The notes under the pieces: model-generated
What the model was told of the DNA's origin: nothing
The model's database searches: none
What the model saw: the letters and a program-made list of their open reading frames with translations, nothing else
Program-made: the position numbers and the translations under genes
Assembly (NCBI GenBank): GCA_013151035.1
Contig: JAADJB010000008.1
Location: 11,466 to 75,465 of the forward strand
Reading direction: 5' to 3'
Origin: Gammaproteobacteria bacterium
Lineage (GTDB): Bacteria > Pseudomonadota > Gammaproteobacteria > JAADJB01
DNA: 64,000 nucleotides
Part shown: piece by piece, positions 6,397 to 60,568 of the stretch
Position numbering within the stretch: position 1 is the stretch's first letter
Layout: every line of letters starts with the position of its first letter

Positions 6397-6750
6397 ATGC
6401 AAATAAATACAACAAGAAGATTGGTGGATGTGGTTATCCTGTTTATCGCGGGAAATTACCTGTATAACTTTATGGGTGATTTATCATCCTCGATTATTGG
6501 GTTCTTTGCTTCGTTGGCCTATATATTCTTTTATCGCTTGGCGAGAAAGGCATTAGGTAGTCCGCCATTTTCATATTACTTTTTTATGTGGGTTCCTACG
6601 GTGGTATTTGTGTTTGCCCCTGTCGGGTATGATTTTTATCAGGCGGATTCTGCCGGGCTCATTTCCTGGGCTGTTGGGGGGCTTCCGTGGTTCCAACTGA
6701 TACTGCCGATTGTATTGCTTTACATTGTTCGCGAAGAGTTAAAAAAGTAA
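6397..6750 (+). CDS. small integral membrane protein (3-4 TM)
   Basis: 117 aa with hydrophobic segments. Lies directly upstream of the giant lipoprotein gene. Confidence 0.4.
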   Translation: MQINTTRRLVDVVILFIAGNYLYNFMGDLSSSIIGFFASLAYIFFYRLARKALGSPPFSYYFFMWVPTVVFVFAPVGYDFYQADSAGLISWAVGGLPWFQLILPIVLLYIVREELKK

Positions 6751-6836
6751 CGGGTTGGAACTGTGGTATTATGAAATTTCGTGCAATGTTGACTATAAAA
6801 CCGTGAGAAAATTTTAATCAATCAGGTGGATAAAGG

Positions 6837-9800
6837 ATGTCTCGTTTTTTATTACAGAAAGCAACACCGAAAGCTTTTATAGCGCTGCTCCTTGTCTTTT
6901 TATTATCTCTGCTATCGGGTTGTGGTGGCGGTTCAGCGTCATCTAATGGCAACAATGCCAGTGTAACGATCAATATTGGCAGCTCTCAAAATGTTGTGTC
7001 GGTTAATTCGGGGCAATGGCTTCTTAATCAAATCATCACTCAGGCTTATGCCGCCTCATTGTTGACGGAATATAGTTATCTATCACGGATCACTCTGGAA
7101 ATATGGGAGGGTGACAATAATATAACGGGTCAAATTAACGAGAGATATAATAAGGGCACTTTTGGTGCGCTTGTCGCTGCTGAGGGCAATGATGCCTTGT
7201 TGTTGCTGGATACGAGTACCCGTATTAGTGTGCCGGCAGATGTGGCGTTGAGATATGTCGTTAAGGCCTTCCAGACGGTGGATGGTGAGTTAGTCCGGTT
7301 TTTTCAGACTGAGGCGAGCTACACGGCAGGGCTTGATAGTGCCGATTTTTCGGGTAATCTCAATATGTCACTTCGTGTGAATATAAACGACTCGATGATC
7401 CAGCAAATGGATACGCCTTCATTGCCCTGTGTTGATGAAGATATTGACCCGATCACTAATGCTGTTGTGGGCGATGGTATTTGTGATACCTATGAAAACC
7501 TGTTTGTGGTTATTGATACTCGAACGGGTTCAGTCACTGAAGGTCAGTATATCCCTGATGTTGATCTGGACGGTATACCTAACGGTATTGATACAGACTC
7601 GGATGGTGATGGTGTTGATGATGCGAATGAGGATGCATCGCAGAATTCAAATAATGGCTATCCAAATTTTGTACATACTAACAATAACCCGACATCGACC
7701 CGTGCCGAGATTACGCTTGCTCAAGGGGCCACGCAAACATTTAGTCCTGATGTCGATGATGATGATGAGGGTGATACCTTTACGGTTATTTCGGTAATAC
7801 AGCCATTACTAGGCGCGGTGTCTATCGTGGGTGGTGCATTGCACTATGAGGCACCACGAGACCAGTCAGGTGATACTCAGTTTAGTTATACGGTGGTAGA
7901 TTATGCTGCACAGACACCGATTAGCGGGATAGCACTCATACACATTACAGCCGCTACGCCACCGAATAGTGCCCCGGACGTTTATTCGCTAGCAAGTCTT
8001 GAAACCAATGAAGATACAGCAATAAGTAATATCGATGTTGTCAGCGAGACTGATGCTCAAGACCCTGATGGTGATAACATCAGTGTCACTGCCTTTGATA
8101 CTGTTTCAAACTGGGGTGGAGTTGTTACCCAAAATCTGGATGGTACGCTGAATTACACACCCGCTGCAAATTACAACGGTAGTGATAGTTTTGCGTTTAC
8201 TATTAGTGATGACTTTGGTGGATCTATAGCAGGGGTGTTCGGCTTCGATGTGTTGGCCGTCAATGATGCGCCTGTTATTAGTGGTGCTCCGGTTATCACT
8301 GTGGAGGAGAATAGTACCTACAGTTTTATGCCAACAGCTAATGACGTTGATGCGGGTGATATCCTGGTCTTTAGTCTCACTAATCAACCTGCCTGGGCAA
8401 GTTTTAACACAATAACAGGTGAGTTGAGTGGTATACCGGCGAGAGATGATGCTGGGGTTACTCTGAATATTGTAATCACTGTAACCGATAATGAGGGTTT
8501 AACCGATTCTCTACCTGCTTTTGATCTAACGGTGACAACAAATAATGTGCCGCCTGTTTATCAATCACAGATCTATGAGCACTTTTCTGGCGGTGAAAAT
8601 CATACGCTGGCACTGAGGAGTGATGGTACGGTTTGGGCGTGGGGGGGCAATAATTATGGTCAACTGGGTAATGGTGATTTTGGTGGCGGCTCCACGCCTG
8701 TTCAGGCACTGGGGCTGAGTAATATTATCGATCTGGCTGCGGGTGACTTTCACTCTGTGGCCTTACGGAGTGATCGAACAGTCTGGCTTTGGGGGCATAA
8801 TAATAATGGTCAACTGGGAAAGGACTCTGCTGAACATGAATCGAGCATACCTTCGCAGCTTGTCGGACTAACAGCGGTTGATGCGGTTGCTGCTGGTCGT
8901 CAGTACACGGTCGCATTGAAAACGGATGGTACCGTCTGGAGTTGGGGTAGAAACAGTTATGGTCAGTTGGGGAACGATTCAACCACTAGCACAGAGATAC
9001 CTCAGCAAGCTGTTGGCTTAAGCAATATTATTGCGATTAGTGCGGGTCGTTACCACGCCCTTGCACTCAAGGGTGATGGCACCGTCTGGGCGTGGGGTAG
9101 AAATAATTATGGCCAACTGGGTGATGGTAGTGATACTCAGAGGACTATACCGGTTCAGGTGAGTGGTTTGACGGGTGTTGTTAGTATTGCGTCGGGTGGC
9201 AGTCATAATATTGCGATGAAATCCGATGGTACGCTGTGGCTGTGGGGCTGGAATCTTTATGGCCAATTGGGTGATGGCACGATGACTGATTCCGCCATAC
9301 CAGTTCAAATTGCAGGTCTAACAGGGGTCGATAGTATGGCTGCCGGTCGTTACCACACCCTTGTTTCCCGATCTGATGGTACGGTCTGGAGTTGGGGCAG
9401 GAACCTTGAAGGTCAGTTAGGGGGTAACACAACGAGTGGTTCAACAAGCCCTGTTTTGATGACATCTCTATCGGATATTACCGCGGTTTCTGCCGGTTAT
9501 AAACATTCGTTGGCACGTGCTTCTGATAACACGCTATGGGCATGGGGACGTAATGGTTATGGTCAATTGGGCGATGGTGCCGACCTGGTTCTGACGACCC
9601 CTCGAACAATGAGTGAGATAAGGTCTGTGTTGGCTATTACCGCTGGACGTAAGCATTCTGCGGCTATTTTAGACGATGGTCGTGTGTGGTCGTGGGGTGA
9701 TGGCGATGATGGCGAGTTGGGTAATGCTGCAACTGTTGATGTCAGTGTGCCAGTGCCGGTGGCAGGGCTTAAATCTGTACGTCAAGTTACATTGGGTATT

Positions 9801-41816: not shown

Positions 41817-44474
41817 TTACTCTTTGTTGAGTAATTCACTGATTGTTTGTAATAAAATATCTGAGTTATAAGGTTTGGATAATAAACTGTTTTTAAGTGT
41901 TTCATCTACTGTAGATGGATGATGATTATCTGCAAAGCCACTGGCTAACTGAATTATAATATCCGGGTATTTTTCTTTAACTATAGCGGCGAGTTGATAG
42001 CCATCTTTTTCAGGCATGATAATGTCGCTTAATAATAAATCAACTTTATTATGTTCAAGGATATGGAGTGCATTTTTAACGCTATTAGCTGATAAGACAT
42101 TAAAGCCATGCTTGTTCAATAGGGTGCTACAAAACTCAAGTAAGTCGGGTTCATCGTCTACCACGAGAATTGTTTCACTACCGATAATTTCTGAGGCGGT
42201 GTCTCTTTTGATTGATACGGGGGGTTTATTGCCTTCATGATGGCGTGGAAAATATAGCATCTGTCGTGTACCGTGCCCTAATTCGGAATAGAGTTTGATT
42301 ACGCCATGGCTGCGCCGCACAAAACCATAAACCTGACTTAATCCTAAGCCCGTTCCTTTTTCCCCTTTAGTTGAAAAAAACGGGTCATATATTTTATTTT
42401 TTATTTGTGGGTCGATGCCGCAGCCCGTATCGCTAATGCTCAGTGAAACATAGTCACCAGCTGTCATTTTCAGGGTGTTTGCATCTATGGTATCAATTTT
42501 TTCATTACGGGTACGAATAATTAGATGACCGCTCTCTTTCATTGCATGCATTGCATTTATGCTGATATTTAGAATGGCATCTATTGTGTCGCCTTCATTC
42601 AGACGAACTGACCATAAGTCTTCTCCCAGATCAAATTCCAGATTAATACGTGCAGTTAACGTTTTTTGTAACATTAGCTGTTGATTAAGTAAAATATTAT
42701 TGAGGTTTAACAGGGTGATGTCAGACTTTTTGTGACGTGAGAAATCCAGTAATTTTTTAGTTAGTGCTGCTCCACGTTCGGCAGAGTGTTTTATTGTATC
42801 GACAAATTTTAAAAGTTTAGGTTGATCCTTTAATTCATCTTTTAATAAGTCGCTATATCCAATAATAACGCCGAGCATATTGTTATAATCATGTGCAACA
42901 CCACCTGTAAGTTTGCCTAAAGCATCCATTTTCATTGCCTGGCGATATTGTTCTTCTGCTAATTTGCGTTTGGTGACATCGCTAAAAATGAGTATCATGC
43001 CAAGGATAATATCGTCTTCATTGAGTATTGCTGCTGCCGAATCTTCTATCTTGTATTCAATGCCATCTTTGGATATTAGCGTGGTGAGGTTATTGAGATA
43101 AATGGTTTGGCCTGTTGCCAGCACCTTGTCTACCGGATTTTCAATGAGTTTTCGGCTCAATTCATCAATAATAATAAATATATTTCTTATCGGTTGACCA
43201 TGGGCTTCTTTAAAGTTCCAACCGGTTAATTTTTGTGCGGCTGGATTCATGCGTGTGATATTGCCTTTCTCATCTGTTGCAATAACCCCATCACCAATAC
43301 TGTTGAGCGTAATATCTAACCTTTTCTCGCGATCTTTTAATTCATCTGTTATCCGCTTAATATTGGTTTTCATTTGATTGAATGCAATAACAAGTGTGTT
43401 GAACGCACCTTGCCTTTTGCTTTCTGCTAATGGTGGCCCCGAATAAATGCCTTGTGATATTGCATCAGCCTGAGTTGCTATTTTTGATAAGTTTCGGGTA
43501 AAGATGATAACAATCCGGTAAGCGATGAATGTAGATAGTGCCGCAATAATGGTACCAATAACTAATAATAGTTGTTTTAGATCGGTTACAGGGGCTGTTA
43601 TTTTATCTACGGGTGCGATGGCAATAATACCCCAATCGAGTGCTTGATTTATACCAAATTCAGGCATGTCTGAATAACCGGCGATAATCTTTGTACCTGT
43701 TATATCGGTATAAGTGATATTTTCTCTATACTCCTGAGTGGCAAAGGTGTCGAGTAATTCGGGTCGCACTGTTAAATCAGGTAAGTTGTCAAGAAATTCT
43801 ACTGAGGGGTCATCGGATATAATGACCTTGCCATTATTATTAACGATATAGATATATTTTTTACCGGCAATGCTATTGTTAAATGAGGAAAGCATCCGAG
43901 CTATATTTTTCAGATTTATTTCCAGTGTTAGTAGACCGATTAATTGAGTATTCGAGTCATCAGTAATAGGTGTGATAACGAGGATGCCGGGGCCAGCATC
44001 TAAAATAGTTGCCTCTGAAATATAAACGTCTCCTTGAGAACCTTTACTCGATAAAGTGTATAGGGTTTCAAATATATGGTGTGTTTTCCAGAATAACTGC
44101 CCCTGTTCATTTTGCATCCCTGAACTGGCAATGATTTTCCCGTCTGGATTTAATATATCTATATCATTAATCCATTTATTTGCTGCTACTATTTCAGTTG
44201 CATACTGAATTTTAGCAGTGATGTCACCACTTTCCAGGACATCTGCTTGAGAAATTATTTTTGCATCAGTTATTCGTTCAATAATGAAAGTATTAATATC
44301 GTAAGCAATAAGGGCTGATTTCTCCTCTAATTGATTTCTAATAATTTCTGTTAATGCGTGAGATGAACTGTATAGACTTATTGTTGCAAATATAGCAAGA
44401 GGAATAATTACTGCTAGTACCGCCGTAATAGCGATTATTGACTCCTGTGATAGGGTTTTGACTTTATTTTCCAT
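41817..44474 (-). CDS. hybrid sensor histidine kinase / response regulator (TM, periplasmic Cache-like, HAMP, PAS, HisKA, HATPase_c, REC)
   Basis: 885 aa. N-terminal TM and a second TM around aa 300. PAS (GDGVIATDEKGNITRMNPAAQKLTGW). H-box (GGVAHDYNNMLGVIIGYSDLL). G-boxes (DTGCGID, GTGLGL). C-terminal receiver with the D of LLSDIIMP. AT-rich relative to neighbours. Confidence 0.88.
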   Translation of the reverse strand: MENKVKTLSQESIIAITAVLAVIIPLAIFATISLYSSSHALTEIIRNQLEEKSALIAYDINTFIIERITDAKIISQADVLESGDITAKIQYATEIVAANKWINDIDILNPDGKIIASSGMQNEQGQLFWKTHHIFETLYTLSSKGSQGDVYISEATILDAGPGILVITPITDDSNTQLIGLLTLEINLKNIARMLSSFNNSIAGKKYIYIVNNNGKVIISDDPSVEFLDNLPDLTVRPELLDTFATQEYRENITYTDITGTKIIAGYSDMPEFGINQALDWGIIAIAPVDKITAPVTDLKQLLLVIGTIIAALSTFIAYRIVIIFTRNLSKIATQADAISQGIYSGPPLAESKRQGAFNTLVIAFNQMKTNIKRITDELKDREKRLDITLNSIGDGVIATDEKGNITRMNPAAQKLTGWNFKEAHGQPIRNIFIIIDELSRKLIENPVDKVLATGQTIYLNNLTTLISKDGIEYKIEDSAAAILNEDDIILGMILIFSDVTKRKLAEEQYRQAMKMDALGKLTGGVAHDYNNMLGVIIGYSDLLKDELKDQPKLLKFVDTIKHSAERGAALTKKLLDFSRHKKSDITLLNLNNILLNQQLMLQKTLTARINLEFDLGEDLWSVRLNEGDTIDAILNISINAMHAMKESGHLIIRTRNEKIDTIDANTLKMTAGDYVSLSISDTGCGIDPQIKNKIYDPFFSTKGEKGTGLGLSQVYGFVRRSHGVIKLYSELGHGTRQMLYFPRHHEGNKPPVSIKRDTASEIIGSETILVVDDEPDLLEFCSTLLNKHGFNVLSANSVKNALHILEHNKVDLLLSDIIMPEKDGYQLAAIVKEKYPDIIIQLASGFADNHHPSTVDETLKNSLLSKPYNSDILLQTISELLNKE

Positions 44475-47955: not shown

Positions 47956-48798
47956 ATGAAGAAACATCGAAGTAGGCAGGCAGTATCAAAAATCAGATTG
48001 TGGATTGAACGCTTGATCCAGGTGTTGCTGGGAGGCCCCGGCAGTCGTGAAAGTCTGTTATCGATACTGCGTAGCGCACACCATAAAGATTTGTTTGATG
48101 CCGATGCATTAGCCATGATCGAAGGCGTATTGCAGGTATCCGAGATGCAGGTGCGGGATATTATGATTCCCCGATCACAGATGATTGTGGTTTTGCGTGA
48201 TGATGACATCAAGGAGTCTTTGCCACAGATTATTGAATCAGGTCATTCACGTTTTCCAGTGATAGGGGATAGTCGTGACAAGGTGGTGGGAATTTTACTG
48301 GCGAAAGATCTGTTACATGAATATGCAGAGAACGAGACCCGTTTTGATATGCATGATGTTTTGCGTCCTGCTGTTTTTGTACCCGAGAGTAAACGCCTGA
48401 ATGTGTTGTTGAAAGAATTCAGGGTGAGTCGGAACCATATCGCTATTGTGGTGGATGAGTATGGTGGTGTTGCTGGCATGGTGACGATTGAAGATGTGCT
48501 GGAGCAGATTGTTGGTGAGATCGAGGATGAGCATGATGTTGAAGATGTGAACTCAATCTTCAAACATAGTGATAGCAATTACACGCTGAAGGCATTAACC
48601 ACGATTGAAGATTTTAATGCCTATTTCGAGACCGATTTTGTCGATGATGAGTACGACACCATTGCCGGTATGATGATGCGAGAGCTGGGTTGCCTACCTA
48701 AGCGTGGGGATACCGTGACTAAAGGCAAGTATAGCTTTAAGGTGTTACGTGCTGATAATCGTAGAGTGCATGTGGTGCGGTTGACGTTGGGGGTTTGA
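47956..48798 (+). CDS. corC: CBS-domain Mg/Co efflux-associated protein CorC (YbeX)
   Basis: Two CBS domains plus a C-terminal CorC_HlyC domain. Conserved operon position after ybeY. Confidence 0.88.
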   Translation: MKKHRSRQAVSKIRLWIERLIQVLLGGPGSRESLLSILRSAHHKDLFDADALAMIEGVLQVSEMQVRDIMIPRSQMIVVLRDDDIKESLPQIIESGHSRFPVIGDSRDKVVGILLAKDLLHEYAENETRFDMHDVLRPAVFVPESKRLNVLLKEFRVSRNHIAIVVDEYGGVAGMVTIEDVLEQIVGEIEDEHDVEDVNSIFKHSDSNYTLKALTTIEDFNAYFETDFVDDEYDTIAGMMMRELGCLPKRGDTVTKGKYSFKVLRADNRRVHVVRLTLGV

Positions 48799-48987
48799 GT
48801 ATGCGACTGGAAAGACAAGAGATAACGATGACGAGCTCTCAAAATACTTGCTCTATCTGTGGTGAAGGATCTTTGTGCCTACCAAGGGTGGGTATATGAT
48901 GTAGCATGTTTGAATAGCAGATATAAATGCAGGATGAATTAGAGGAAGTATGATATTTGGTTATGTGACTGTTAGTATTAAAAAATT

Positions 48988-49410
48988 ATGATGAAAAATT
49001 GTTTAAACTGTCATTTCTTATGCGATTCATACCGTGAAGAAAATTCAGGGTGTGAATTAAAATTTTCTTTGAAGCAAGAATTGCGTGAATCACTAAAAAA
49101 CAATCCAGTAGGTTATGATAGAGGATGGCATACATTACAATGTCACATGGGAGTATGGGACGAAGGAGTCTCTCCTGTAGCTAAAGGTGAAGATACGATA
49201 CTTTTTTCCCAAGATCGAGGCTATAGTTGTTTTTTTATTCCATATCGTAAATCTATGCTTTTTCCGGCTGCAATTGAAATTCAAAAACGAGAAGAAGAAA
49301 ATAGGTGGCTCAAAAGAACCAGTACTTATACAGTAATAGGTTTATGGTTAGCGGGTATAGGGTTGATACTCAATGCTCTCGTCGCAATATACCAGGCAAT
49401 AAAATGCTAA
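48988..49410 (+). CDS. hypothetical Cys-rich protein with C-terminal TM anchor (140 aa)
   Basis: N-terminal CLNCHFLCD...GCE..LQCH possible metal-binding Cys/His cluster. C-terminal hydrophobic helix. AT-rich. Confidence 0.4.
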   Translation: MMKNCLNCHFLCDSYREENSGCELKFSLKQELRESLKNNPVGYDRGWHTLQCHMGVWDEGVSPVAKGEDTILFSQDRGYSCFFIPYRKSMLFPAAIEIQKREEENRWLKRTSTYTVIGLWLAGIGLILNALVAIYQAIKC

Positions 49411-49519
49411 CAAGAAGTTCCAGGCGGACAATTGACATCGAGGTTCGTTTGGCTACGCCAAGCCTCCCTCTCTGTCAATTCCCGCTGAGCTAGTCGTTAG
49501 GCTACAAAAGGAAAATGAA

Positions 49520-49771
49520 ATGGGTGAAAAAATAGATTATCAAAATATATCTGAAGTCGCTTATACAGATAGCAAGGAAAAAGCAAATGCCTACTTACAA
49601 TTAAGTTGGGTAATGCTTAATATAGAAAGTACGCAATATTCCGAGCATGGCTGGAACACTTCATTTGTTTTTGGTTGGTTAAAAAATAATGGTGAAATAA
49701 AATATCCAGAAAAAAGTAAATGGGAAAAAAATATGGAAGAAGAAAAAGAAGATGAGTCCATACCATTTTAA
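49520..49771 (+). CDS. hypothetical small protein (83 aa)
   Basis: Intact ORF with RBS aaaggaaaatgaaatg. Lys/Glu-rich. No motif. Confidence 0.35.
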   Translation: MGEKIDYQNISEVAYTDSKEKANAYLQLSWVMLNIESTQYSEHGWNTSFVFGWLKNNGEIKYPEKSKWEKNMEEEKEDESIPF

Positions 49772-49893
49772 AATAATTCAAAGATTTAACAAGAAAAATC
49801 AACTTCGCTTGTTCCACACGCCAGTCGTGCAAAAAGTCACGTGCTGCCTATTAAAAATATTATGTTTCTAGTGGGTTTTGACGTAGGTAAATA

Positions 49894-50502
49894 ATGAATA
49901 ACGTAACTTCTGATTTTCAAATAGGTATTAGTTACACAACGGATATACCTGAAGAAATGGTCGCTGGTTTTGAATCAGCAATTGCGATCACAGGTTTAGA
50001 TATAAAATCAGAAGCTAGAGAAGTAGATTCATATGCAGGAGTTGAATGGCTGGTGCCTACAGCAGTAATTGTTTTTATCGGGAAATCATATTTCGACGGG
50101 TTTCTAAAGGAGATGGGGAAGGAACATTACCACCTTTTTAAAAAATATATAGTTACACTGTGGGAACACTTTTTTGGTCAAGATAGAGCCGTTAAATATA
50201 ATCGGGTAAGCACCAAAGGAAAAATATTGTCACTAGATAAATATTCTCCAATATTCTCAATAATGACGGACTTGCTGCCGGGTTACCGAATTAAATATTT
50301 ATTACAAGATGATATATCACAAGCAGAATACCAAAATGCGATCGAGGAATTCTTCTCATTTCTTGAAGAGCTTGATTTTGGGGTGCTAAATAAAAATATA
50401 AAAGGGCAACTTGAAAACGCAAGATCACTTGGTGGTATTATTCTTCTTACATATGAAGAAGGTGCGTTAAAAGTGCTAAATCCAGTATCAAGAAATGAGT
50501 AA
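49894..50502 (+). CDS. hypothetical protein (202 aa)
   Basis: Intact ORF in the AT-rich island. No recognisable motif. Confidence 0.4.
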   Translation: MNNVTSDFQIGISYTTDIPEEMVAGFESAIAITGLDIKSEAREVDSYAGVEWLVPTAVIVFIGKSYFDGFLKEMGKEHYHLFKKYIVTLWEHFFGQDRAVKYNRVSTKGKILSLDKYSPIFSIMTDLLPGYRIKYLLQDDISQAEYQNAIEEFFSFLEELDFGVLNKNIKGQLENARSLGGIILLTYEEGALKVLNPVSRNE

Positions 50503-50616
50503 GATAAAGAAGCATCAAAAATACGTGGATGCGATTGTTTTAGTAATCTTGAAAAGACAATGTCCAGGATGCCATGAAAAATATAACAGCCTGATAATAA
50601 TCTATAAAGGAATACA

Positions 50617-52803
50617 ATGAAGCTGACTGATAACGAGATCAGGGATATCAATCGTCATCTTGAGACGGGTAAGCCGTTGCCGGAGAAGTATCGGTTTTTG
50701 CTGTTCGAGGACAAGAAAGAAGTCGAGCTGGTGTGGAATGGCAAGAGTGGTGATGTCTGTAATGTGGTGTTACCGTTCCAGGTGATTGAGCAGGTGGATG
50801 AGCCTCGGGCGGAAGCGGTTGTTGAATTGCAATCGGATTTGTTTGATATACAGACAGGTCGGCAGGTTACTGGCTGGAACAACAAGTTAATCTGGGGTGA
50901 TAACAAGTTGATCTTGTCGTCCCTGAAAAATGGGCCGTTGCGAGAGGAGATTGAGGCGCAGGGTGGTATTAAGCTGATCTACATTGACCCACCGTTTGAT
51001 GTGGGGGCGGATTTCAGTATGGATATTGAGATCGGTGGTGAGACGCTGACCAAAAAACCCAATGTACTGGAGGAGATTGCCTATCGGGATACCTGGGGCA
51101 AGGGGGCGGATTCATTTATTAGTATGATCTATGAACGGCTAGTGTTGATGCGCGATCTATTGGCAGAGGATGGCAGTATCTATGTGCATTGTGATTGGCG
51201 GGTGAATAGTTATATTCGATTGGTCTTGGATGAGGTGTTTGGGAAGAAATATTTTAGGAATGAGGTTGTTTGGAAAAGGCAATCACCTAGTAGCAGTAAA
51301 GCAAGAGCAAAAAAATTCAGTGCGGATCACGATACAATTTTGGTTTTTTCTAAAAATGAAAGCCCATTATTTCATCCAATATATGGGGAATATCCAAAAG
51401 AAGAAATAGAAAAAAGATTTCGTCAATCTGATCAACGAGGAAGATACAAGGATGCCGAGTTAGCCACATATTCAAAAGAAACATTTGAAAGATTAAAGAA
51501 AGAAGGTAGATTGATTGTTACAAAAGGGGGGAAATATCGATATAAAATTTATCTTCGTGATATCAAAGGTGTATTGATTGATACTTTATGGATAAATATA
51601 CCACCAGTCAATTCTCAGGCAATAGAGTCTACTGGTTATGCAACCCAAAAACCCGAAGCTCTGTTAGAACGCATCATCAAAGCCTCCTCTAATGAAGGCG
51701 ACATCATTGCTGATTTCTTTTGTGGCTCTGGTACCACTGCCGCCGTTGCCGAAAAGCTGGGTCGCAAATGGATCGTCTCCGATCTCGGAAAATTCGCCAT
51801 CCATACCACCCGTAAGCGTATGATCGGCGTACAGCGTCAACTAAAGGCTGAGGACAAAAGCTGGCGCGCTTTCGAGATTCTTAATCTGGGTAAATATGAA
51901 CGCCAGCACTATATTGGCATTAATCCTGATCTGCGCGAAGAGGAAAAGCAACAACAACTGGAGGCCAAAGAGAAGGATTTCCTGAATCTTATCCTCCATG
52001 CCTATCGTGCTGAGGCAGTAAATCAGTTTAATAGCTTTCAGGGTAAGAAGGCAGGCAGACTGGTGGCAGTGGGGCCGGTTAATCTGCCGGTGACGCGTTT
52101 GTTTGTCGAAGAGGTTATTCTGGAGTGTCGACAGAAGCATATTACCAAGGTGGATATCCTGGGTTTTGAGTTTGAGATGGGGCTGTTTCCCAATATTCAG
52201 GAAGAGGCGAAGGGTAAGGGAATCGATCTTGCGATGAAATACATCCCACGTGATGTATTTGATAAGCGGGCAATCGAGAAGAACCAGGTGGTATTCCATG
52301 ATGTGTCGTTTATTGAGGTGAAGCCGCACCTGGGTAAGGGCAAGAATAAGCACCAGATTGCCATTGAACTAACTGATTTCTCAGTATTTTATTCCCAGGA
52401 TGCAGCAAGTGCCGATACCAGCCTGAAAAACAGGAAATCGAAGGTGATTGTGGATCAGGGTCTGGTGGTCAAGATCAGCAAGGATAAGGATGGTATTATC
52501 ACTCGTGAGGTCTTGACCAAGGTATGGACGGACTGGATTGATTACTGGTCGGTGGATTTTGATTTTGAATCCAAGCAAGAGATTCTTCGGGTCAGGAATG
52601 AGGAGAGTGGTGAGACCGAGGCAGTCTGGACGGGTGATTATGTGTTTGAGAATGAGTGGCAATCCTTCCGTACCAAAAAAGACCGCTCGCTGGAACTGAA
52701 AAGTGCGTTTATGGAGTGTATGCCGGGTCGTCGGAAGGTGGCTGTGAAGGTGGTGGATATCTTTGGTAATGATACGATGAAGATTATTGAGGTGACAATA
52801 TGA
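50617..52803 (+). CDS. mod: Type III restriction-modification Mod subunit (beta-class N6-adenine DNA methyltransferase)
   Basis: Characteristic Type III Mod N-terminus (..[32 protein letters not shown]). Motif IV DPPF (LIYIDPPFD) precedes motif I FCGSGTT, the beta-class order. The region between them is the expected target-recognition domain. Confidence 0.8.
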
Positions 52804-53696
52804 CAGCGCTAAAGACTCCTAAATTCTATCGACAGCGTTTTTTGTTGTTATTGTTGGAAATGGCAGGAGGTTGCTTGTCGAAAATGGATTTTCAGAAATT
52901 ACTATTTTTGTCACAAAAAGAAGCAGGGTTTTCGTATTACGATTTTGTTCCCTACCACTATGGCTGTTATTCTTTTCAGGCACAGTCTGATATTGAGTTG
53001 CTGGGATCATTGGGTTGGTTGGAGGAGAATTCAAAGAGTATTAATTTACTTGCGAAACCAGGTGATTGTTTAAAAAGTGGTGAGCTGGATGTGATTAATC
53101 AATTTACAAAACAATTTAAAGAATACCGTGGTCGAAAACTGGTTACTTATGTATATGAACGCTATCCTTATTATGCTACGCGTAGCAAGATTGCTACTGA
53201 GATACTGGATGAAATATCATACAGGAAGGTTAGTGCAGAAAGAAATAAGTTAATTGGTAAAGATAAAGTCATTTATACCATTGGTTATGAGGGGCTTTCG
53301 TTTGAGTCTTATGTTAATCAATTGCTTAAAAGTGATGTGCGCTTATTATGTGATGTTCGTAAAAATCCGTTAAGTCGGAAGTTTGGTTTTTCCAAGGGTG
53401 TCCTTAGCCGGCTACTGCCAAAATTGGGTGTTAATTATTTACACATACCTGATCTTGGAATACGGTCGGATATGCGTCAGGAATTAAATTCGGAAGAGGA
53501 TTACAAAAAACTTTTCAGGGCTTATGTGCGGACATTGCCTCAAAAGATGGGGAGTTTGCAATTACTGAAAAGTTTACTCAATGAGCATCAAAGAATTGCA
53601 CTGACCTGTTATGAAAAGGAACATCATTCTTGTCACCGTCACTGTGTTACTGACTATTTGGAGAATAAGAGTAATATCAGGGTGCGTCATATATGA
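52800..53696 (+). CDS. two-domain protein: N-terminal Panacea-like (DUF4065/SocA-like) domain fused to C-terminal DUF488
   Basis: ATGA overlap with mod. N-terminal [40 protein letters not shown] resembles the Panacea consensus (KLqKLlY...GPy). C-terminal [36 protein letters not shown] matches the DUF488 signature (TIGhs..DVR..P.S...GI.Y.h...LG). Confidence 0.5.
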
Positions 53697-54523
53697 GCAG
53701 GATGCGAAAAGTATTTATAACTGTTAAAACATACCCAACACTTTCAAAAAAATATGCCGAACTGGTTTGTACAGCAGGTATCCTTGATGATGGAAGTTGG
53801 GTTCGTATTTATCCATTGCCATTTAGAAAGCTGGATTATGAAAAAAGATACAAAAAATATCAATGGATGGAATTGCCGCTTATTAAAAATGAGAGTGATC
53901 CTCGTCCAGAAAGTTACAGGGTAATTGATATTGATCAAGTAAAAATAGTCGGTGATCCTGTAGATACAAAACAGGGATGGCTCGAACGAAAAAATATAGT
54001 CTTTGGCAAGAATAAGACTTATTTAGATTTGGATGATCTTATTGAGAAGGCTAGTAATAATGAGCTTTCAATGGCTGTTTTCAAGCCAACTAAAATACTG
54101 GATTTGGTGATAGAAGAAGTTGACCGTGAATGGAGTAGTGAAAGTTTGGATCTTCTTAAAGCCAAAGCTAAGCAATTATCCTTGTTTCAGACAGAAGAGG
54201 AGTTAAAAAAAGAATTTTTAATTGTTGATAAATTGCCGTACAAGTTTTCATATCGATTTGAGGATTGCAAGGGAAAGCAAAGTAAATTGATGATTGAAGA
54301 CTGGGAAATAGGCATGTTGTACTGGAATTGTTTGAAACAGACAGGAAATAATGAAAGTGAAGCACTAGAACTGGTGCGAAAAAAATATATCGATGAGTTT
54401 TCTAATAAGGATTTGTTTTTATTTTTGGGTACAACCAGGCAATTCCATGGTTGGGCTAAAAATCCGTTTGTAATTATCGGGGTATTTTACCCTCCGATTG
54501 ATAATCAGATTTCTTTTTTATAG
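53693..54523 (+). CDS. hypothetical protein (276 aa) translationally coupled between the DUF488 fusion gene and res
   Basis: ATGA overlap upstream. Ends 11 nt before the res RBS. No recognisable domain. Confidence 0.45.
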   Translation: MSRMRKVFITVKTYPTLSKKYAELVCTAGILDDGSWVRIYPLPFRKLDYEKRYKKYQWMELPLIKNESDPRPESYRVIDIDQVKIVGDPVDTKQGWLERKNIVFGKNKTYLDLDDLIEKASNNELSMAVFKPTKILDLVIEEVDREWSSESLDLLKAKAKQLSLFQTEEELKKEFLIVDKLPYKFSYRFEDCKGKQSKLMIEDWEIGMLYWNCLKQTGNNESEALELVRKKYIDEFSNKDLFLFLGTTRQFHGWAKNPFVIIGVFYPPIDNQISFL

Positions 54524-54534
54524 GGAGGTCAATA

Positions 54535-57219
54535 ATGGCTCTGCATCCTGATTTTCCGGATTCGCCCCATGTTATTCTTGAACCGGATATTCGCTGGTTT
54601 CCTGCTGATGAAGCCCTGCGTGAATCCTCTTATGAGAAATTATTACCACCACTGGTACATAAGTTACGCAGGAAGGTTCAGTTATGGCGTGAGACAGGTT
54701 ATGAGGGTGCGTCCCCTACTAGCATTCATCTTTTGAACTGGTGGTTTGAGCGTGAGCATCTAATGCCAAAGTCCGATGGTTCTATGTCCACGTTTCAGTA
54801 TTACTTTGCCCAACGCGAGGCAGTGGAAACGGTGGTTTATCTTTATGATGTGGTCAAGGTAAAGGATAAATATGATCTGATCCGGTTTGATTCATCCGGT
54901 GCGGTATCAGCGGGTATGTTTGATGAGGCATGGCGGCGCTTTGTAATCAAGATGGCTACAGGTTCGGGTAAGACCAAGGTAATGAGTTTGATCCTCGCAT
55001 GGAGTTATTTTCATAAGATGTATGAAGATGATTCTGAACTGGCGCGTAACTTTCTGTTGATTACTCCGAATATCATTGTGCTGGATCGTATTCGTACGGA
55101 TTTTGATGGCCTGCGTATCTTCTTCGAAGACCCTGTGCTGCCCGATAATGGTTATGAAGGTTACAACTGGCGTGATGATTTTCAACTGACCCTGCATATT
55201 CAGGATGAGGTCAATATTACCCGAAAGATTGGCAATATCTTCCTAACCAATATTCATCGGGTTTATTCAGGTAATGATATCGAACCATCGGCGGATGATG
55301 ACGATACCATGGATTACTTTTTAGGTAAGAGGCCGGTTGGAAAGACCACTGATTCAAAGGTTGATCTGGGGGATATTGTCAGGGATATTGATGAGCTGGT
55401 CGTGCTGAATGATGAGGCACATCATATCCATGACAGTCGTTTAGCCTGGTTTAAGTCAATTGAGGATATTCATCATCGTTTGCAGCATAAAGATCGTTCT
55501 CTTTCACTGCAAATTGATGTGACTGCAACACCCAAGCACAATAATGGGGCTATCTTTGTGCAGACAGTATCTGATTATCCCTTGGTTGAGGCCATTGCGC
55601 AGAATGTGGTGAAACACCCTGTGTTGCCTGATTCTGCCAGCCGTACTAAATTGTCTGAGCGACAAAGCTCGCGTTATACCGAGAAATACGCAGATTATTT
55701 GCATCTGGGGGTTGAGGAATGGCGTAAGGCATACGGTGAGCATAAAAAACTGGAGAAGAAGGCTATCCTCTTTGTGATGACAGATGACACCAAAAATTGT
55801 GATGATGTTGCTGAGTATCTTGAGACTACCTATCCTGAGCTAAAAGATGCAGTGCTGGTCATTCATACCAGGAATAATGGTGAGGTCAGCGAGGCTGCTA
55901 GTGGCAAGAAAAAAGAGGAGCTGGAACTATTACGCAAACAGTCCAATGCGATTGATAGCTGGGAGAGTCCCTACAAGGCTATCGTTTCCGTGCTGATGTT
56001 GAAAGAGGGTTGGGATGTCAGGAATGTCACCACCATTGTGGGTCTGCGTGCTTATGGAGCCAAAAGCAATATTCTGCCAGAGCAGACCTTGGGACGCGGG
56101 CTGCGCAGAATGTATCCCGGCAATGAGGTGGAAGAATATGTCAGTGTCGTCGGTACCGATGCCTTTATGGACTTTGTTGAGTCTATTCAGTCTGAAGGTG
56201 TGGAACTTGAGCATAAGGCTATGGGTGAGGGCACTAAACCAAAAACACCGATTATTGTTGAGGTGGATAATGAAAATACCAGTAAGGATATTGAACTGCT
56301 TGATATTGAGATTCCGGTATTAACAGCAAGAATCTATCGAGAGTACAAAAACCTTGAGGATCTGGATGTCAGTTGCTTTGACTACAAGAAGGTGAAATAT
56401 AGATCCTTTAGTGAAGAAGATATGCGAGAGATTGTGTTCAAGTATGTGACCAGTAATGAGATCAGTCATACGACCTTGCTGGATTCCTGTGTGGTGACGG
56501 ATTATCGCTCTGTTATTGGTTATTTTGCTCAAATTATCATGAAGGATTTACGCCTGGTCAGTGGTTATGATGCGTTATATGGAAGGGTGAAATCCTTTAT
56601 TCAGAATGACTTGTTCGAAACAGAGATTGATCTTGATAGTATGAACACCCTGCGTAATCTATCGGAGTTAGAGGCGAGCAAAACACTGGTTGAGACCTTT
56701 AAGAAGCAGATTAATGCGCTTACGGTTCGAGATAAAGGTGATGCGGAGATCAAGGATTATATCAAGTTAAGGAAGACCCGCCCATTTGTGGTTAAGGAAC
56801 AGGGCTACCTTATTCCTAACAAAAGTATCTTTAACAAGATTATCGGTGATAGTCATCTGGAGCTGCAATTTGCCGCCTTTCTTGAAGGTTGTGAAGATAT
56901 TATTTCTTACGTAAAAAACTATCTGGCTGTACATTTTCAGATTGATTACGTTAATGCCGATGGCAATATTTCAAATTATTATCCTGACTTTATTGTTAAG
57001 TGCTCTTCAAGCTCAGTAATTATTGTAGAAACCAAGGGGCTTGAGGATCTTGATGTACCCCTTAAGATGGAGCGATTACGCGAGTGGTGTGTCGATGTTA
57101 ACAAAGCACAATCGGTTATTCATTATGATTATGTATTTGTTGATGAGGAAGGTTTTAATCAATATCAGCCTAAAACCTTTCAGACATTGATGTCAGGTTT
57201 CAGGGGATATAAGGCTTAA
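54535..57219 (+). CDS. res: Type III restriction enzyme Res subunit (SF2 helicase plus C-terminal PD-(D/E)xK nuclease)
   Basis: RBS gggagg. Helicase motif I MATGSGKTKV, motif II LNDEAHHI, motif VI QTLGRGLRR. C-terminal nuclease motif YYPDF...IIVETKG. Confidence 0.8.
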   Translation: MALHPDFPDSPHVILEPDIRWFPADEALRESSYEKLLPPLVHKLRRKVQLWRETGYEGASPTSIHLLNWWFEREHLMPKSDGSMSTFQYYFAQREAVETVVYLYDVVKVKDKYDLIRFDSSGAVSAGMFDEAWRRFVIKMATGSGKTKVMSLILAWSYFHKMYEDDSELARNFLLITPNIIVLDRIRTDFDGLRIFFEDPVLPDNGYEGYNWRDDFQLTLHIQDEVNITRKIGNIFLTNIHRVYSGNDIEPSADDDDTMDYFLGKRPVGKTTDSKVDLGDIVRDIDELVVLNDEAHHIHDSRLAWFKSIEDIHHRLQHKDRSLSLQIDVTATPKHNNGAIFVQTVSDYPLVEAIAQNVVKHPVLPDSASRTKLSERQSSRYTEKYADYLHLGVEEWRKAYGEHKKLEKKAILFVMTDDTKNCDDVAEYLETTYPELKDAVLVIHTRNNGEVSEAASGKKKEELELLRKQSNAIDSWESPYKAIVSVLMLKEGWDVRNVTTIVGLRAYGAKSNILPEQTLGRGLRRMYPGNEVEEYVSVVGTDAFMDFVESIQSEGVELEHKAMGEGTKPKTPIIVEVDNENTSKDIELLDIEIPVLTARIYREYKNLEDLDVSCFDYKKVKYRSFSEEDMREIVFKYVTSNEISHTTLLDSCVVTDYRSVIGYFAQIIMKDLRLVSGYDALYGRVKSFIQNDLFETEIDLDSMNTLRNLSELEASKTLVETFKKQINALTVRDKGDAEIKDYIKLRKTRPFVVKEQGYLIPNKSIFNKIIGDSHLELQFAAFLEGCEDIISYVKNYLAVHFQIDYVNADGNISNYYPDFIVKCSSSSVIIVETKGLEDLDVPLKMERLREWCVDVNKAQSVIHYDYVFVDEEGFNQYQPKTFQTLMSGFRGYKA

Positions 57220-57285
57220 TATCGGTATTTTGTATTTATGTAGCAATATGCTACAATATAGGTCGTATTGTAGCGAGGTGTACTG

Positions 57286-57678
57286 ATGTCGACTCCACTC
57301 AGGGTAAATGACCGTCTTTTTAAGGATGCCGAGGCGGAGGGTTCTTTAATGAATCGCTCAACAGCCAAGCAGGTTGAGTTTTGGGCCGAGCTAGGCAGAC
57401 GTGTAGCTCCTTCGGTATCACCCGCAAATATGCTGGCATTGATGCAGGGGATTGCACAGGTGCATATTGAGATACCTGACTTACAGCCGGTAAATCCTGA
57501 TCATGTTTTCGATGTGGTTGATAAAGCCAGTGCATCGGGTTTACTGGGTCAGCAGATTACACAGGGTGGCTTGTATTATGAGGTGAGTAAAACCCAACCA
57601 GGGTTGCTGGATCAGGTTATGCCCGATGGGCAACGCCTTGCGGGACGTTTCAATAGTGGTTTATTTATCCCTGAATGA
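57286..57678 (+). CDS. ParD-like (PF11903-type) RHH antitoxin
   Basis: MSTPLRVNDRLFKDAEAEGSLMNRSTAKQVEFWAELGR N-terminus. ATGA overlap with the downstream zeta-like toxin. Confidence 0.6.
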   Translation: MSTPLRVNDRLFKDAEAEGSLMNRSTAKQVEFWAELGRRVAPSVSPANMLALMQGIAQVHIEIPDLQPVNPDHVFDVVDKASASGLLGQQITQGGLYYEVSKTQPGLLDQVMPDGQRLAGRFNSGLFIPE

Positions 57679-58259
57679 ATGTGGATAAACAGCTTTGGTT
57701 ATTAGCGGGTGGTAACGGAGCAGGTAAATCAACCTTCTACCAACAGTTTTTGGCAACAACGGAATTACCCTTTATCAATGCCGATATACTTGCCCGGCAA
57801 CTTGATGCTGAGAATAGCGAAGCGATTAGTTATAAGGCAGCAAGGCTAGCTGAAAAACTACGAACGGATTTATTACAATCAGGTGTCAGTTTTTGTTTTG
57901 AAACGGTTTTCTCTCATCCATCAAAGATTGATTTTTTAGCACAAGCAAAATCATTGGGCTATGAGATTATTTTGGTTTATATCCATCTACAAACAGATGA
58001 ATTGAACCAGGCGCGTGTTATGCAACGTGTGAAACAGGGTGGGCATAATGTGCCTATGGATAAGATTATTAGTCGTATCCCAAGAACAATGTCCTATGTT
58101 AGTGATGCATTGCCTCTGGTTAACCGGGCGGTATTTTATGATAATTCATTACACAGCCAGCCATTTTTATCCGTGGCATCGCTGTTTGCAGGGCAGTTGC
58201 AGAAGCATGTGAAGCCATTACCTGATTGGGCGGAGAAGATGTTGGTGAATTACATTTGA
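57675..58259 (+). CDS. zeta-toxin-like P-loop kinase (AAA/zeta family) toxin
   Basis: Walker A LLAGGNGAGKST and zeta/PezT-like fold length (194 aa). Paired with the upstream ParD-like gene. Confidence 0.7.
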   Translation: MNVDKQLWLLAGGNGAGKSTFYQQFLATTELPFINADILARQLDAENSEAISYKAARLAEKLRTDLLQSGVSFCFETVFSHPSKIDFLAQAKSLGYEIILVYIHLQTDELNQARVMQRVKQGGHNVPMDKIISRIPRTMSYVSDALPLVNRAVFYDNSLHSQPFLSVASLFAGQLQKHVKPLPDWAEKMLVNYI

Positions 58260-58933
58260 TTGCGGTTTTTTCTGATTCCAAACAGCCCGATTAAACCCGA
58301 GATCAAAAGCCAGGCGCTTGCGGGCAGGGGTACAATTGCTAAACCATATTGTATGTGATCAACTTCTATGTTGTTGACGCTCCCTCTATCCGAAATGAAT
58401 ATCTTTGATATACCGCCTGCATTGCTTACGCCGAGAAAGCGATCCTCAGCTGTCGTTCCATTAAAACTGTAATCACCTAAAGTAGCTGTCAAGACACCCA
58501 GAGAGGCTCCATTTTGATCAAATGCCTCAAAATCAACCAGGCTATTCGGTGTGCCATCGGTCCATACCAGGCCGGCTCGGGTTGGAAAACCACCAAGAAT
58601 ATTGGTGTCAAATGTAAAGGTCATACTCGTTGGGTCGTAAATACTGGTGGCATTGCCACCGTTACCGTTAATGACGCCATTGTCTATATCGACTGAATCA
58701 CCGGAAGGCCCTTTATAAATGATACCTTGATTAACGCTGAGCCCAGGGGTGTTCAGTTGCTGGTCTTCGAAGTCTTCCAGATAAAACCAGGAGAAAGTCT
58801 CTCCGGAAAAGGGGCTGTCACCTGAACTCAGATAGGGCGATGGCCCGAGTAATGCCGCTGATGTGACTGTGGACAAGATAAAAAGACAGAAACCTGTAAC
58901 GGTATTTATTAGGTGATGATATTTGCGTGTCAT
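58250..58933 (-). CDS. PEP-CTERM sorting-domain secreted protein
   Basis: Signal peptide. Gly/Asn-rich body. C-terminal VPLPASAWLLISGLIGLFGIRKNRNQM PEP-CTERM motif. Confidence 0.8.
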   Translation of the reverse strand: MTRKYHHLINTVTGFCLFILSTVTSAALLGPSPYLSSGDSPFSGETFSWFYLEDFEDQQLNTPGLSVNQGIIYKGPSGDSVDIDNGVINGNGGNATSIYDPTSMTFTFDTNILGGFPTRAGLVWTDGTPNSLVDFEAFDQNGASLGVLTATLGDYSFNGTTAEDRFLGVSNAGGISKIFISDRGSVNNIEVDHIQYGLAIVPLPASAWLLISGLIGLFGIRKNRNQM

Positions 58934-59020
58934 TGGGATATCCCCTTGATTATTCGTTTTTTATATGAGATCCATCTTCCAGTAAAAGTCTAGCTGATAT
59001 CGATTGTTTGTCAATTTCGC

Positions 59021-60568
59021 GTGGGTCTGTCATATAATTGTGTGATGGATATCCTTTTGTCTCAGCGTGAACCTGTAAAAAACCTGTTGGCACTGTTTAG
59101 CGGCCTGCTAATCCCATTGGCCTTTGCGCCTTATTCATACGGTCTGCTGGTGTTGCCTGCGCTGGCACTGTTTTTCTATCTGTTGGAGTCATGCTCGGCT
59201 CGGCAGGCTTTTGTGCGCGGTTGGTGTTTTGGTCTGGGTCTGTTTGGTGCCGGTCTGTACTGGGTTTATATCAGTATCCATTTTTATGGACATGTCGGTA
59301 TCTTTCTCAGTGTGGCAGTGACCTTTGCCATGGCGGCTCTGTTGGCATTATATCCGGCTATCTTTGCCTGGTTGGTGGTACGTTTCAAGCCGGTTATGCC
59401 CGGCCTTCGACTGGTACTGTTGATGCCGGCTGTCTGGTTATTAATGGAGTGGACTAAGGGCTGGTTGTTTACTGGTTTCCCCTGGTTGACCCTGGGTTAT
59501 ACGCAGATTGATACCGCGCTAGCGATGTATGCACCGATTGTCGGGGTCTATGGTCTGTCTCTTTTATTGGTGATGCAGGCAGGGGTGTTGACCTGGGTGC
59601 TGGTGGTGGGTCGTCGTGCTGTGTTAATGGGCGGGCTGATTTTCGCCTTGATTTGGCTGCCTGCCTTATTGTTCGATGAAGTGCAATGGACGCAGGCCTT
59701 GGGTGAACCGATAGCGGTGAGTCTGGTGCAGGGCAATGTTGATCAGAATGATAAATGGAATCCATCATTACGTGGGGAATTTATCAATCAATATCTTGAG
59801 ATGAGTCTGGGACATCTGGATAGTGACATTATCGTATGGCCAGAGACTGCCATCCCGGCCTTTTATCATCAGCTTGAATCTTCAGTGATTGCTGAACTGG
59901 ATCGTCTCGGCAAGAACTCTGGTACCAGTTTTCTAGTGGGTGTCCCGGTGCTGGATCAACAACGATGGGACTATTTTAATGCCGTTGTGGCACTGGGTCA
60001 GGGGCAAGGCACTTACTACAAAAATCATCTAGTGCCCTTTGGTGAATATCTACCTCTGCGGCAATGGCTTGGCACCTTATTACATTTTATGGATATCGAG
60101 ATGGGAGACTTCAGTCGGGGCGGGGTCTCACAACCATTGATTCAGGCCGCAGGTTTACCGGTGAGTGTGTCGATTTGTTACGAAGCGATCTTTGAAACGG
60201 AACGTCTGAGCGATCTGCCCGAGGCGGCCTTGTTAGTGAATGTGAGTAATGATGCCTGGTTTGCAGATTCATCTGCCCCGCATCAACATCTGGAGATGGT
60301 GCGTATGCGTGCGCTGGAGGCGGGACGTTGGGTGTTGCGTGCAACCAATACCGGGATTACGGCGATTATTGATGAACGGGGCAGGGTTGTAGCGCGTGCG
60401 CCACAGTTTGAGGTCTATGTGTTGGATGGACAGTTACAGCCGCGCAGTGGGGCAACCCCCTTTGTTATCTGGGGGAATATCCCTGTGTTGGTGTTGGTGG
60501 GGCTGATTTTGTTGGGTTGCGCGACAAGCCCACTGTTCAGGCTTTTCGGCATGAAGAAGGTTAGGTGA
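59021..60568 (+). CDS. lnt: apolipoprotein N-acyltransferase
   Basis: 515 aa. N-terminal multi-TM region plus a C-N hydrolase domain (E..K..C triad region ICYEAIF). Follows corC in gene order. Confidence 0.9.
   Translation: MGLSYNCVMDILLSQREPVKNLLALFSGLLIPLAFAPYSYGLLVLPALALFFYLLESCSARQAFVRGWCFGLGLFGAGLYWVYISIHFYGHVGIFLSVAVTFAMAALLALYPAIFAWLVVRFKPVMPGLRLVLLMPAVWLLMEWTKGWLFTGFPWLTLGYTQIDTALAMYAPIVGVYGLSLLLVMQAGVLTWVLVVGRRAVLMGGLIFALIWLPALLFDEVQWTQALGEPIAVSLVQGNVDQNDKWNPSLRGEFINQYLEMSLGHLDSDIIVWPETAIPAFYHQLESSVIAELDRLGKNSGTSFLVGVPVLDQQRWDYFNAVVALGQGQGTYYKNHLVPFGEYLPLRQWLGTLLHFMDIEMGDFSRGGVSQPLIQAAGLPVSVSICYEAIFETERLSDLPEAALLVNVSNDAWFADSSAPHQHLEMVRMRALEAGRWVLRATNTGITAIIDERGRVVARAPQFEVYVLDGQLQPRSGATPFVIWGNIPVLVLVGLILLGCATSPLFRLFGMKKVR

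Follow-up and report, generated by a model that had tools for sequence, protein, structure and literature searches.

A probable integrase-less remnant of integron cargo between corC and lnt in a gammaproteobacterial genome

Two genes that are usually neighbours in one operon in Gammaproteobacteria, corC and lnt, are separated in a gammaproteobacterial metagenome-assembled genome (GenBank assembly GCA_013151035.1) by ~10 kb of foreign DNA, the left edge of which holds three small genes on the + strand: ORF1 (140 aa, 48988-49410), ORF2 (83 aa, 49520-49771) and ORF3 (202 aa, 49894-50502), with locus tags GXP22_00990, GXP22_00995 and GXP22_01000. Coordinates are those of the 64,000-nt stretch of the 148-kb contig JAADJB010000008.1 analyzed here (contig positions 11,466 to 75,465, forward strand), hereafter the window. 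What are these genes, and what brought them to this place? An initial annotation, made from the sequence alone, had described them as AT-rich orphans, and had seen in their position just upstream of a restriction-modification (RM) operon a typical place for anti-phage accessory genes or for phage or plasmid cargo. Our analysis points with good confidence to another answer, namely that integron cargo, of which a remnant without integrase is left, became lodged between corC and lnt.

Much of that first description held up. The three open reading frames are where it had placed them, the type III mod gene does start directly downstream (at 50617), and their composition differs from that of the core genome, with a GC content of 0.359 for ORF1, 0.302 for ORF2 and 0.350 for ORF3 (i.e., 0.30-0.36) vs. 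0.46-0.51 for miaB, phoH, ybeY, corC, lnt and leuS, and a GC at third codon positions (GC3) of 0.23-0.26 in all three. The lack of recognisable motifs was confirmed as well, nothing being above threshold in Pfam, NCBIfam, PADLOC or PHROGs and none of the three matching a PADLOC defence-protein profile at E ≤ 1. The picture of horizontally acquired cargo without known domains at the edge of an island is thus borne out.

A predicted attC site behind ORF1

What the description of an AT-rich “orphan” setting had missed is that the spacer between ORF1 and ORF2 is not AT-rich: these 109 nt have a GC of 0.53 inside the AT-rich stretch, and read TGCTAAC-AAGAA-GTTCCAGGCGGAC...CCCGCTGAGC-TAGTC-GTTAGGC. 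They contain a predicted integron recombination site (attC1, 98 nt, 49405-49502, + strand), which matches our covariance model and has the R''-spacer-L''...L'-spacer-R' layout. R'' (TGCTAAC, 49405-49411) holds the TAA stop codon of ORF1, an AAGAA spacer leads to L'' (GTTCCAGGCGG, 49417-49427) and an imperfect hairpin, and L' (CCGCTGAGC, 49482-49490) is followed by a TAGTC spacer and R' (GTTAGGC, 49496-49502), all on the + strand. R'' deviates from the RYYYAAC consensus at its first two bases and keeps the AAC triplet. The canonical layout (RYYYAAC...GTTRRRY around an imperfect palindrome) was found after ORF1 only, and after neither ORF2 nor ORF3.

As single-stranded DNA, attC1 folds at -18.4 kcal/mol (z -2.7) into a predicted hairpin closed by the outer AAC/GTT pairs, with a 2-nt bulge in L'', on the R''/L'' arm (CA on the top strand, TG on the bottom). 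The equivalent bulge column is a C on the top strand in 12 of 22 curated attC sites, and in this modeled fold attC1 would carry the extrahelical bases that mark the recombinogenic bottom strand. As a separate observation, GC skew is positive over all 64 kb, which makes the + strand the leading strand and would put the bottom, recombinogenic strand of attC1 on the leading-strand template, as reported for stable chromosomal integron arrays.

Models from which the window was always held out of training converge on the same site. A two-arm position-specific scoring matrix (PSSM) built from 21 attC sites curated in other loci scored attC1 at 34.6 bits, vs. 16.0 bits for the next-best position in 64 kb (both strands) and maxima of 15.3-23.5 bits in 30 block-shuffled windows. 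The score was still 25.5 bits with a matrix from ORF3 loci only, and 33.0 bits with one from ORF1 loci only. With a first covariance model (six attC sites from other loci), attC1 was the sole match in the window (20.1 bits, E 0.021), and 23 sites were recovered in 86 related loci, all on the gene strand. A second model, built from those 23 sites, again matched the window at 49405-49502 only (36.4 bits, E 1.7e-6), and identified 53 sites at E ≤ 0.05 in the 86 related loci (790 kb), all 53 on the gene strand. Across the alignment of these 53 sites, which is itself fitted to the covariance model, 96.3% of cells pair (vs. 74% when shuffled and 20-43% when slid), with compensatory double changes in eight of the nine L-box pairs.

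Other approaches were set aside. A first attC scanner, based on R-box complementarity and a bulge-tolerant L-box alignment, was dropped as its signal was not separable from shuffles, and a full-length alignment of attC sites by MAFFT left the 3' arms misaligned. RNAalifold predicted no structure from an arms-only alignment because two spacer registers coexist, and the first covariance model was therefore built from six same-register sites and then iterated. Rfam gave nothing meaningful across 48-60 kb.

The left boundary of the ORF1 cassette is a 5' half-site, GTTAGTA (48968-48974, + strand), 13 nt ahead of the ATG, and in the alignment of ORF1 homolog loci the upstream similarity begins exactly at GTTAG. 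The crossover would lie between G48968 and T48969. For a unit circularising through one attC, the 5' half-site is expected to be complementary to the R'' of the same cassette, and such complementarity is seen at six of seven positions in the window. Among related loci, the half-site is the perfect reverse complement of its own R'' in 9 of 23 ORF1-family and 10 of 18 ORF3-family loci, vs. 9-10% for mismatched pairs. ORF1 and the following 98-nt element are thereby predicted to form a complete integron gene cassette, with a single promoterless ORF.

The same architecture recurs among ORF1 homologs, which have GTTAGAC, GTTAGCC or GTTAGCA 0-15 nt ahead of their ATG, a stop codon embedded in GTCTAAC, GGCTAAC or TGCTAAC, and a downstream hairpin ending in CGTTAGGC or CGTTATGC. 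Cassettes of this family lack a Shine-Dalgarno sequence, the ATG being preceded by an A/T-rich leader and lying 0-15 nt past the GTTAG half-site, and their stop codon is always within the R'' box.

The three families and their surroundings elsewhere

If ORF1 is cassette cargo, its relatives should be found in integrons. The covariance model places an attC directly against the gene in 10 of 46 ORF1-family and 12 of 34 ORF3-family loci, both counts being lower bounds, as the model misses sites visible by eye in L003 and L043 (L-numbers designate the related loci of ORF1, ORF2 or ORF3 homologs). Six loci hold three to six attC sites on the same strand (six in L045, five in L011, four in L040, and three each in L021, L030 and L056). 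In five of the related loci, an integrase gene or fragment lies upstream of the homolog of ORF1 or ORF3 and points away from it. Measured against the NCBIfam integron integrase profile (TIGR02249, cut-off 265 bits), the integrase is complete in L011, from an endosymbiont of Lamellibrachia (441 bits), and near-complete in L028, from Limnohabitans (341 bits), in which the ORF3 homolog is the first cassette, while L026, L021 and L001 hold integrase fragments only. Judged from these sequences, relatives of ORF1 and ORF3 occur in integrase-associated cassette arrays.

Three of these loci deserve a comment of their own. In L001, only the ~100 C-terminal residues of the integrase are left (6510-6827, - strand, covering positions 217-313 of the 315 in the model) and two intact cassettes lie downstream of it, i.e., this is an integron in the process of losing intI. 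L011 has a second partial IntI-like frame (3945-4541, - strand), 59% identical to the main one and ~1.2 kb past the complete intI. In L003, an ORF1-family cassette and its attC form an islet of ~1.3 kb (8010-9400). The 3' end of a tRNA gene is directly repeated at the two edges of this islet, each copy being abutted by GTTAGC, as if a cassette or a small element had inserted at the tRNA gene.

All three ORFs are real genes of conserved, uncharacterized families, since each has conserved relatives, and the label of “orphan” has to be withdrawn. The ORF1 family comprises 30 other clusters (90% identity), 43-84% identical and nearly all metagenomic. The Cys/His cluster and C-terminal membrane anchor noted earlier for this protein are both confirmed, in the form of an N-terminal CxxCH and two further invariant cysteines (CxxCH...C...C, i.e., C5, C8, C52 and C81), conserved GVWDEG and CFF motifs, and then a single C-terminal helix (residues 116-134, strongly hydrophobic with a Kyte-Doolittle value of 2.38). 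ORF1 is thus probably held in the membrane by a tail anchor, with a metal site formed by the four cysteines, and its translation may in fact begin, judging from homologs, at the second ATG (48991). Its AlphaFold model is poor (predicted local distance difference test score of 64.7) and unfit for structure search.

For ORF2, a word-indexed search returned only the protein itself, and an exhaustive phmmer search of 1.84 billion representatives found 27 other proteins of 65-188 aa at E ≤ 1e-3 (five at ≤ 1e-10). These define a sparse conserved family of small Trp-rich proteins with four invariant columns (N23, L26, W30 and W53) and no member with a Pfam or PDB match. ORF2 is preceded by an AAGGA Shine-Dalgarno sequence. 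The ORF3 family is the largest, with 96 other clusters from many phyla, including relatives in Dechloromonas, Enterobacterales, Pseudoalteromonas, Methyloprofundus, Reyranella and a Bacteroidota metagenome-assembled genome, and has the core motif GKSYFDGFLKEMGKDHY. ORF3 is a soluble alpha/beta protein with a repeated beta-alpha-beta unit. The Tautomerase/MIF superfamily was considered as a comparison for this protein only, and neither a significant match to the beta-alpha-beta fold nor the catalytic N-terminal proline that would place it there was found. Profile searches with all three families against PDB sequences gave nothing at E < 0.4.

The suggestion of phage or plasmid cargo was not upheld. 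None of the three proteins has a match in 50,697 phage records, and 72,556 plasmid records gave a single one (ORF3, 24% identical, on a 1-Mb Azospirillum replicon), whereas ORF1 has an intact attC and relatives in attC arrays near intI. The vehicle is the integron cassette system, and not a phage or a plasmid. A functional tie to the RM operon found no support either. By tblastn, Mod, Res, PDC-M19A, PDC-M19B and ORF2 are all without homologs in 55 ORF1-family and 37 ORF3-family loci (3-10 kb flanks), and none of the 92 has relatives of both ORF1 and ORF3. On this comparison, the three ORFs are independent units and not conserved partners of the type III system. Two suspected ORF3 relatives, a 211-aa ORF beside the ORF1 homolog of L001 and a 201-aa ORF beside the ORF2 homolog of L094, would have pointed to a conserved module; both were ruled out for lack of BLASTP similarity.

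The neighbours of the nearest ORF3 clade (52-59% identity) are nonetheless suggestive. The array of L004 and L005 comprises an Mrr gene with an attC of its own as well as a PDC-S11 candidate and, paired with a small ORF, a BrnT toxin gene. ORF3 homologs also lie near an MmeI-like RM gene and a MazE gene in L099, near a ribbon-helix-helix/MazF pair in L010, and near a GIY-YIG endonuclease in L101. This signal is non-specific because cassettes and hotspots often carry restriction and toxin-antitoxin genes. Within L005 (1957-4190, the same as in L004), an attC lies directly 3' of the Mrr-type endonuclease gene, which makes Mrr itself a cassette; the cassette after it holds a 74-aa ORF and the 332-aa PDC-S11 candidate, and the ORF3 homolog is in the one after that.

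Class of the element and competing explanations

Downstream of attC1, only traces of further sites could be seen. ORF2 starts 17 nt past R', a cassette-like position, and is followed by a candidate decayed attC remnant (49784-49817, + strand, ATTTAAC-AAGAA-AAATCAAC...CTTGTTCCAC), which was read by eye with low confidence, has TAACAAGAA in common with attC1, and gets no score from the PSSM or the covariance model. The ORF3-mod spacer (50503-50616, + strand) is AT-rich and without attC. The ORF3 stop region reads GAGTAAG where its closest relatives carry ACATAAC (R'') and then an attC, no attC arm scores after ORF3 with the PSSM, and no recognisable attC stands on either side of ORF3 in the window. 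A covariance scan of 48600-59200 with filters off returned nothing better than E 0.2 besides attC1, the weaker matches being 28-39 nt long and mostly inside genes (the next best, of 28 nt, is inside one). The fold, PSSM and covariance-model results led us to reject a functional attC at either place, i.e., in the ORF2-ORF3 spacer or behind ORF3.

No integrase was found either: tblastn with two confirmed IntI proteins (E ≤ 10) gave no IntI in the 64-kb window, and there is no space for one between corC and ORF1 because corC ends 189 nt ahead of ORF1. The element therefore lacks the intI within a few kb of attC that defines a complete integron, and, with one attC found, also the two or more clustered attC sites without intI that define a CALIN (an attC cluster with no integron integrase; PMC4889954). 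Having one attC only and no intI, it falls in the class of the single attC lacking integron-integrase (SALIN; bioRxiv 10.1101/2022.09.11.507474), as a coding sequence that has just the one attC, with neither an integrase nor a further att site close by.

The likeness to a SALIN extends to the chromosomal position downstream of a host operon able to drive expression. Here, however, two more genes follow, one cassette-like in position and one from a cassette-borne family, so that the element, inserted at GTTAGTA, may be a decayed small array instead of a single insertion. It resembles CALINs in being integrase-less cassette cargo of unknown function with no recognisable intI pseudogene nearby, as in 95% of CALINs (PMC4889954), and differs in its single detectable attC. 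Sedentary chromosomal arrays, gene cassettes of unknown function (gcu) and BRiCs have in common with it small promoterless same-strand ORFs, one with a transmembrane helix (bioRxiv 10.1101/2024.07.02.601719), and relatives of the present genes sit in arrays with restriction and toxin-antitoxin cassettes; the element described here has no integrase, attI or cassette promoter (Pc).

Between a single insertion and a small array with eroded downstream attC sites, we lean slightly toward the latter because of the start of ORF2 17 nt after R', the very low GC3 common to the three ORFs, and the often cassette-borne ORF3 family. Several points weigh against the integron interpretation. The attC models were trained on narrow, GC-rich sites from loci of these same two families, so that AT-rich attC types may escape them, and their calibrated E-values are rough. 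The ORF1 half-site matches its R'' at six positions and not at all seven, attC1 is the only detectable attC, and the cassette status of ORF2 and ORF3 rests on position, family habit and weak remnants. The ORF2-ORF3 spacer forms a 6-bp stem only, and its predicted fold does not stand out from those of shuffled sequences (z +1.0 and -0.2), ORF2 homologs were found in contexts that are not integron-like (three contexts, from four loci of which two are duplicates), and no attC scored adjoining the gene in 36 of 46 ORF1-family and 22 of 34 ORF3-family loci.

Some of these same observations would fit an insertion of ORF1 alone at a genomic GTT site, beside an older AT-rich islet holding ORF2, ORF3 and the RM genes. 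The window has one attC, ORF2 homologs occur outside integrons, and single cassettes are published to insert at genomic attG sites, with SALINs outnumbering CALINs (bioRxiv 10.1101/2022.09.11.507474). Yet the equal and unusually low GC3 of the three ORFs suggests one donor, ORF2 begins where the gene of a following cassette would, at least 12 of the 34 ORF3-family loci have the gene in a cassette, and the ORF3 stop region resembles a mutated R'' and 5' arm; we consider this explanation possible if doubtful. That the hairpin after ORF1 is a mere terminator or a repetitive extragenic palindromic (REP)-like repeat, with the ORFs brought in by a phage, a plasmid or an integrative and conjugative element, would account for a GC-rich imperfect palindrome straight after a stop codon in a window without integrase of any kind and without a second attC. 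This is very hard to reconcile with the rest of the data, as the stem is not followed by a T-run and not called by a terminator scan, the hairpin is unrepeated within 64 kb, both of its conserved arms match attC sites from unrelated loci, related sites lie in intI-linked arrays, and the phage and plasmid collections yielded only the one distant ORF3 match.

It could also be argued, along the lines of the initial annotation, that the ORFs assist or control the adjacent type III RM/PDC-M19 operon in an accessory or anti-phage role, as they are on the same strand and directly upstream of mod, in a 10-kb island with PDC-M19A and PDC-M19B candidates and a ParD-like/zeta pair, and as Mrr (in a cassette), a PDC-S11 candidate, an MmeI-like RM gene and MazF or BrnT toxins are found around members of the nearest ORF3 clade. 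Moreover, about one third of the mobile-integron cassettes of unknown function that were screened gave phage resistance, and about one third of those have transmembrane helices (bioRxiv 10.1101/2024.07.02.601719). A partnership with the operon nevertheless seems improbable given that no PADLOC family matches the ORFs, that the 92 related loci lack Mod, Res and M19A/B homologs and never combine the ORFs, that their GC3 (0.23-0.26) is far from that of mod and res (0.44-0.49), that attC1 stands between ORF1 and the rest, and that restriction and toxin-antitoxin genes are usual cassette and hotspot cargo. The tail-anchored four-Cys ORF1 and the ORF3 family, with its nearest clade amid Mrr, MmeI-like RM, PDC-S11 and toxin-antitoxin cassettes, are candidates for a defence role against phages or other mobile genetic elements, possible only as a prior. 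We would regard it as rather unlikely that at least one of these cassette proteins is a new single-gene factor of this kind (a chromosomal “BRiC”), i.e., a fossil cassette in a corC-lnt defence hotspot.

Under the integron interpretation, and following established integron biology, the bottom strand of attC1 would fold into a hairpin with extrahelical bases recognised by the integron integrase, which could act in trans, exchanging strands at G|TT and excising the ORF1 cassette as a circle. The cargo may have arrived by insertion between an attC and a genomic site, or in the form of a small array from which the integrase was lost afterwards. Since the cassettes are promoterless and a scan predicts no terminator between corC and ORF1, expression would have to come by read-through from the corC operon.

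This kind of system is already known, and what is new are three cassette families of unknown function (~30, 30 and 100 clusters), which join a pool in which phage defence and other adaptive traits are currently being sought. A defined class of mobile element would thus replace unexplained orphan genes next to an RM system, and accounts for the jump in composition, the small promoterless same-strand ORFs and the GC-rich spacer. The locus would also offer a natural case of a cassette that has no integrase and is fixed behind a housekeeping operon, beside cassette-like genes with eroded attC sites.

The rest of the corC-lnt island

The foreign DNA spans 48799-59020 in the window. On its left are the core genes miaB, phoH, ybeY and corC, the last of which ends at 48798, and on its right is lnt (start ~59021). 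All genes of the island but the last are in the direction of the operon that it interrupts. After ORF3 comes a type III RM operon (50617-57219), in which family profiles identify mod (50617-52803, + strand) and res (54535-57219), both with a GC of 0.43-0.45. The Res protein is closest to the BPTD_3080 family, at a score under the cut-off (269 vs. 800 bits). Two additional genes sit between mod and res, and match PADLOC families: a 298-aa DUF488 fusion is the PDC-M19A candidate (E 1e-101) and a 276-aa protein the PDC-M19B candidate (E 9e-114). Both have PHROG matches and a GC of 0.34-0.37, far below that of mod and res.

The right side of the island includes a ParD-like antitoxin gene (PF11903) and a zeta toxin gene (PF06414), which overlap by 4 nt and form a type II toxin-antitoxin pair (57286-58259). 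The final gene ahead of lnt (58250-58933, - strand) encodes a 227-aa VPLPA-CTERM protein with the TIGR03370 sorting signal, and its GC is core-like (0.46). Outside the island, a second low-GC stretch (0.38) corresponds to an 885-aa ORF (41817-44474, - strand) directly upstream of miaB.

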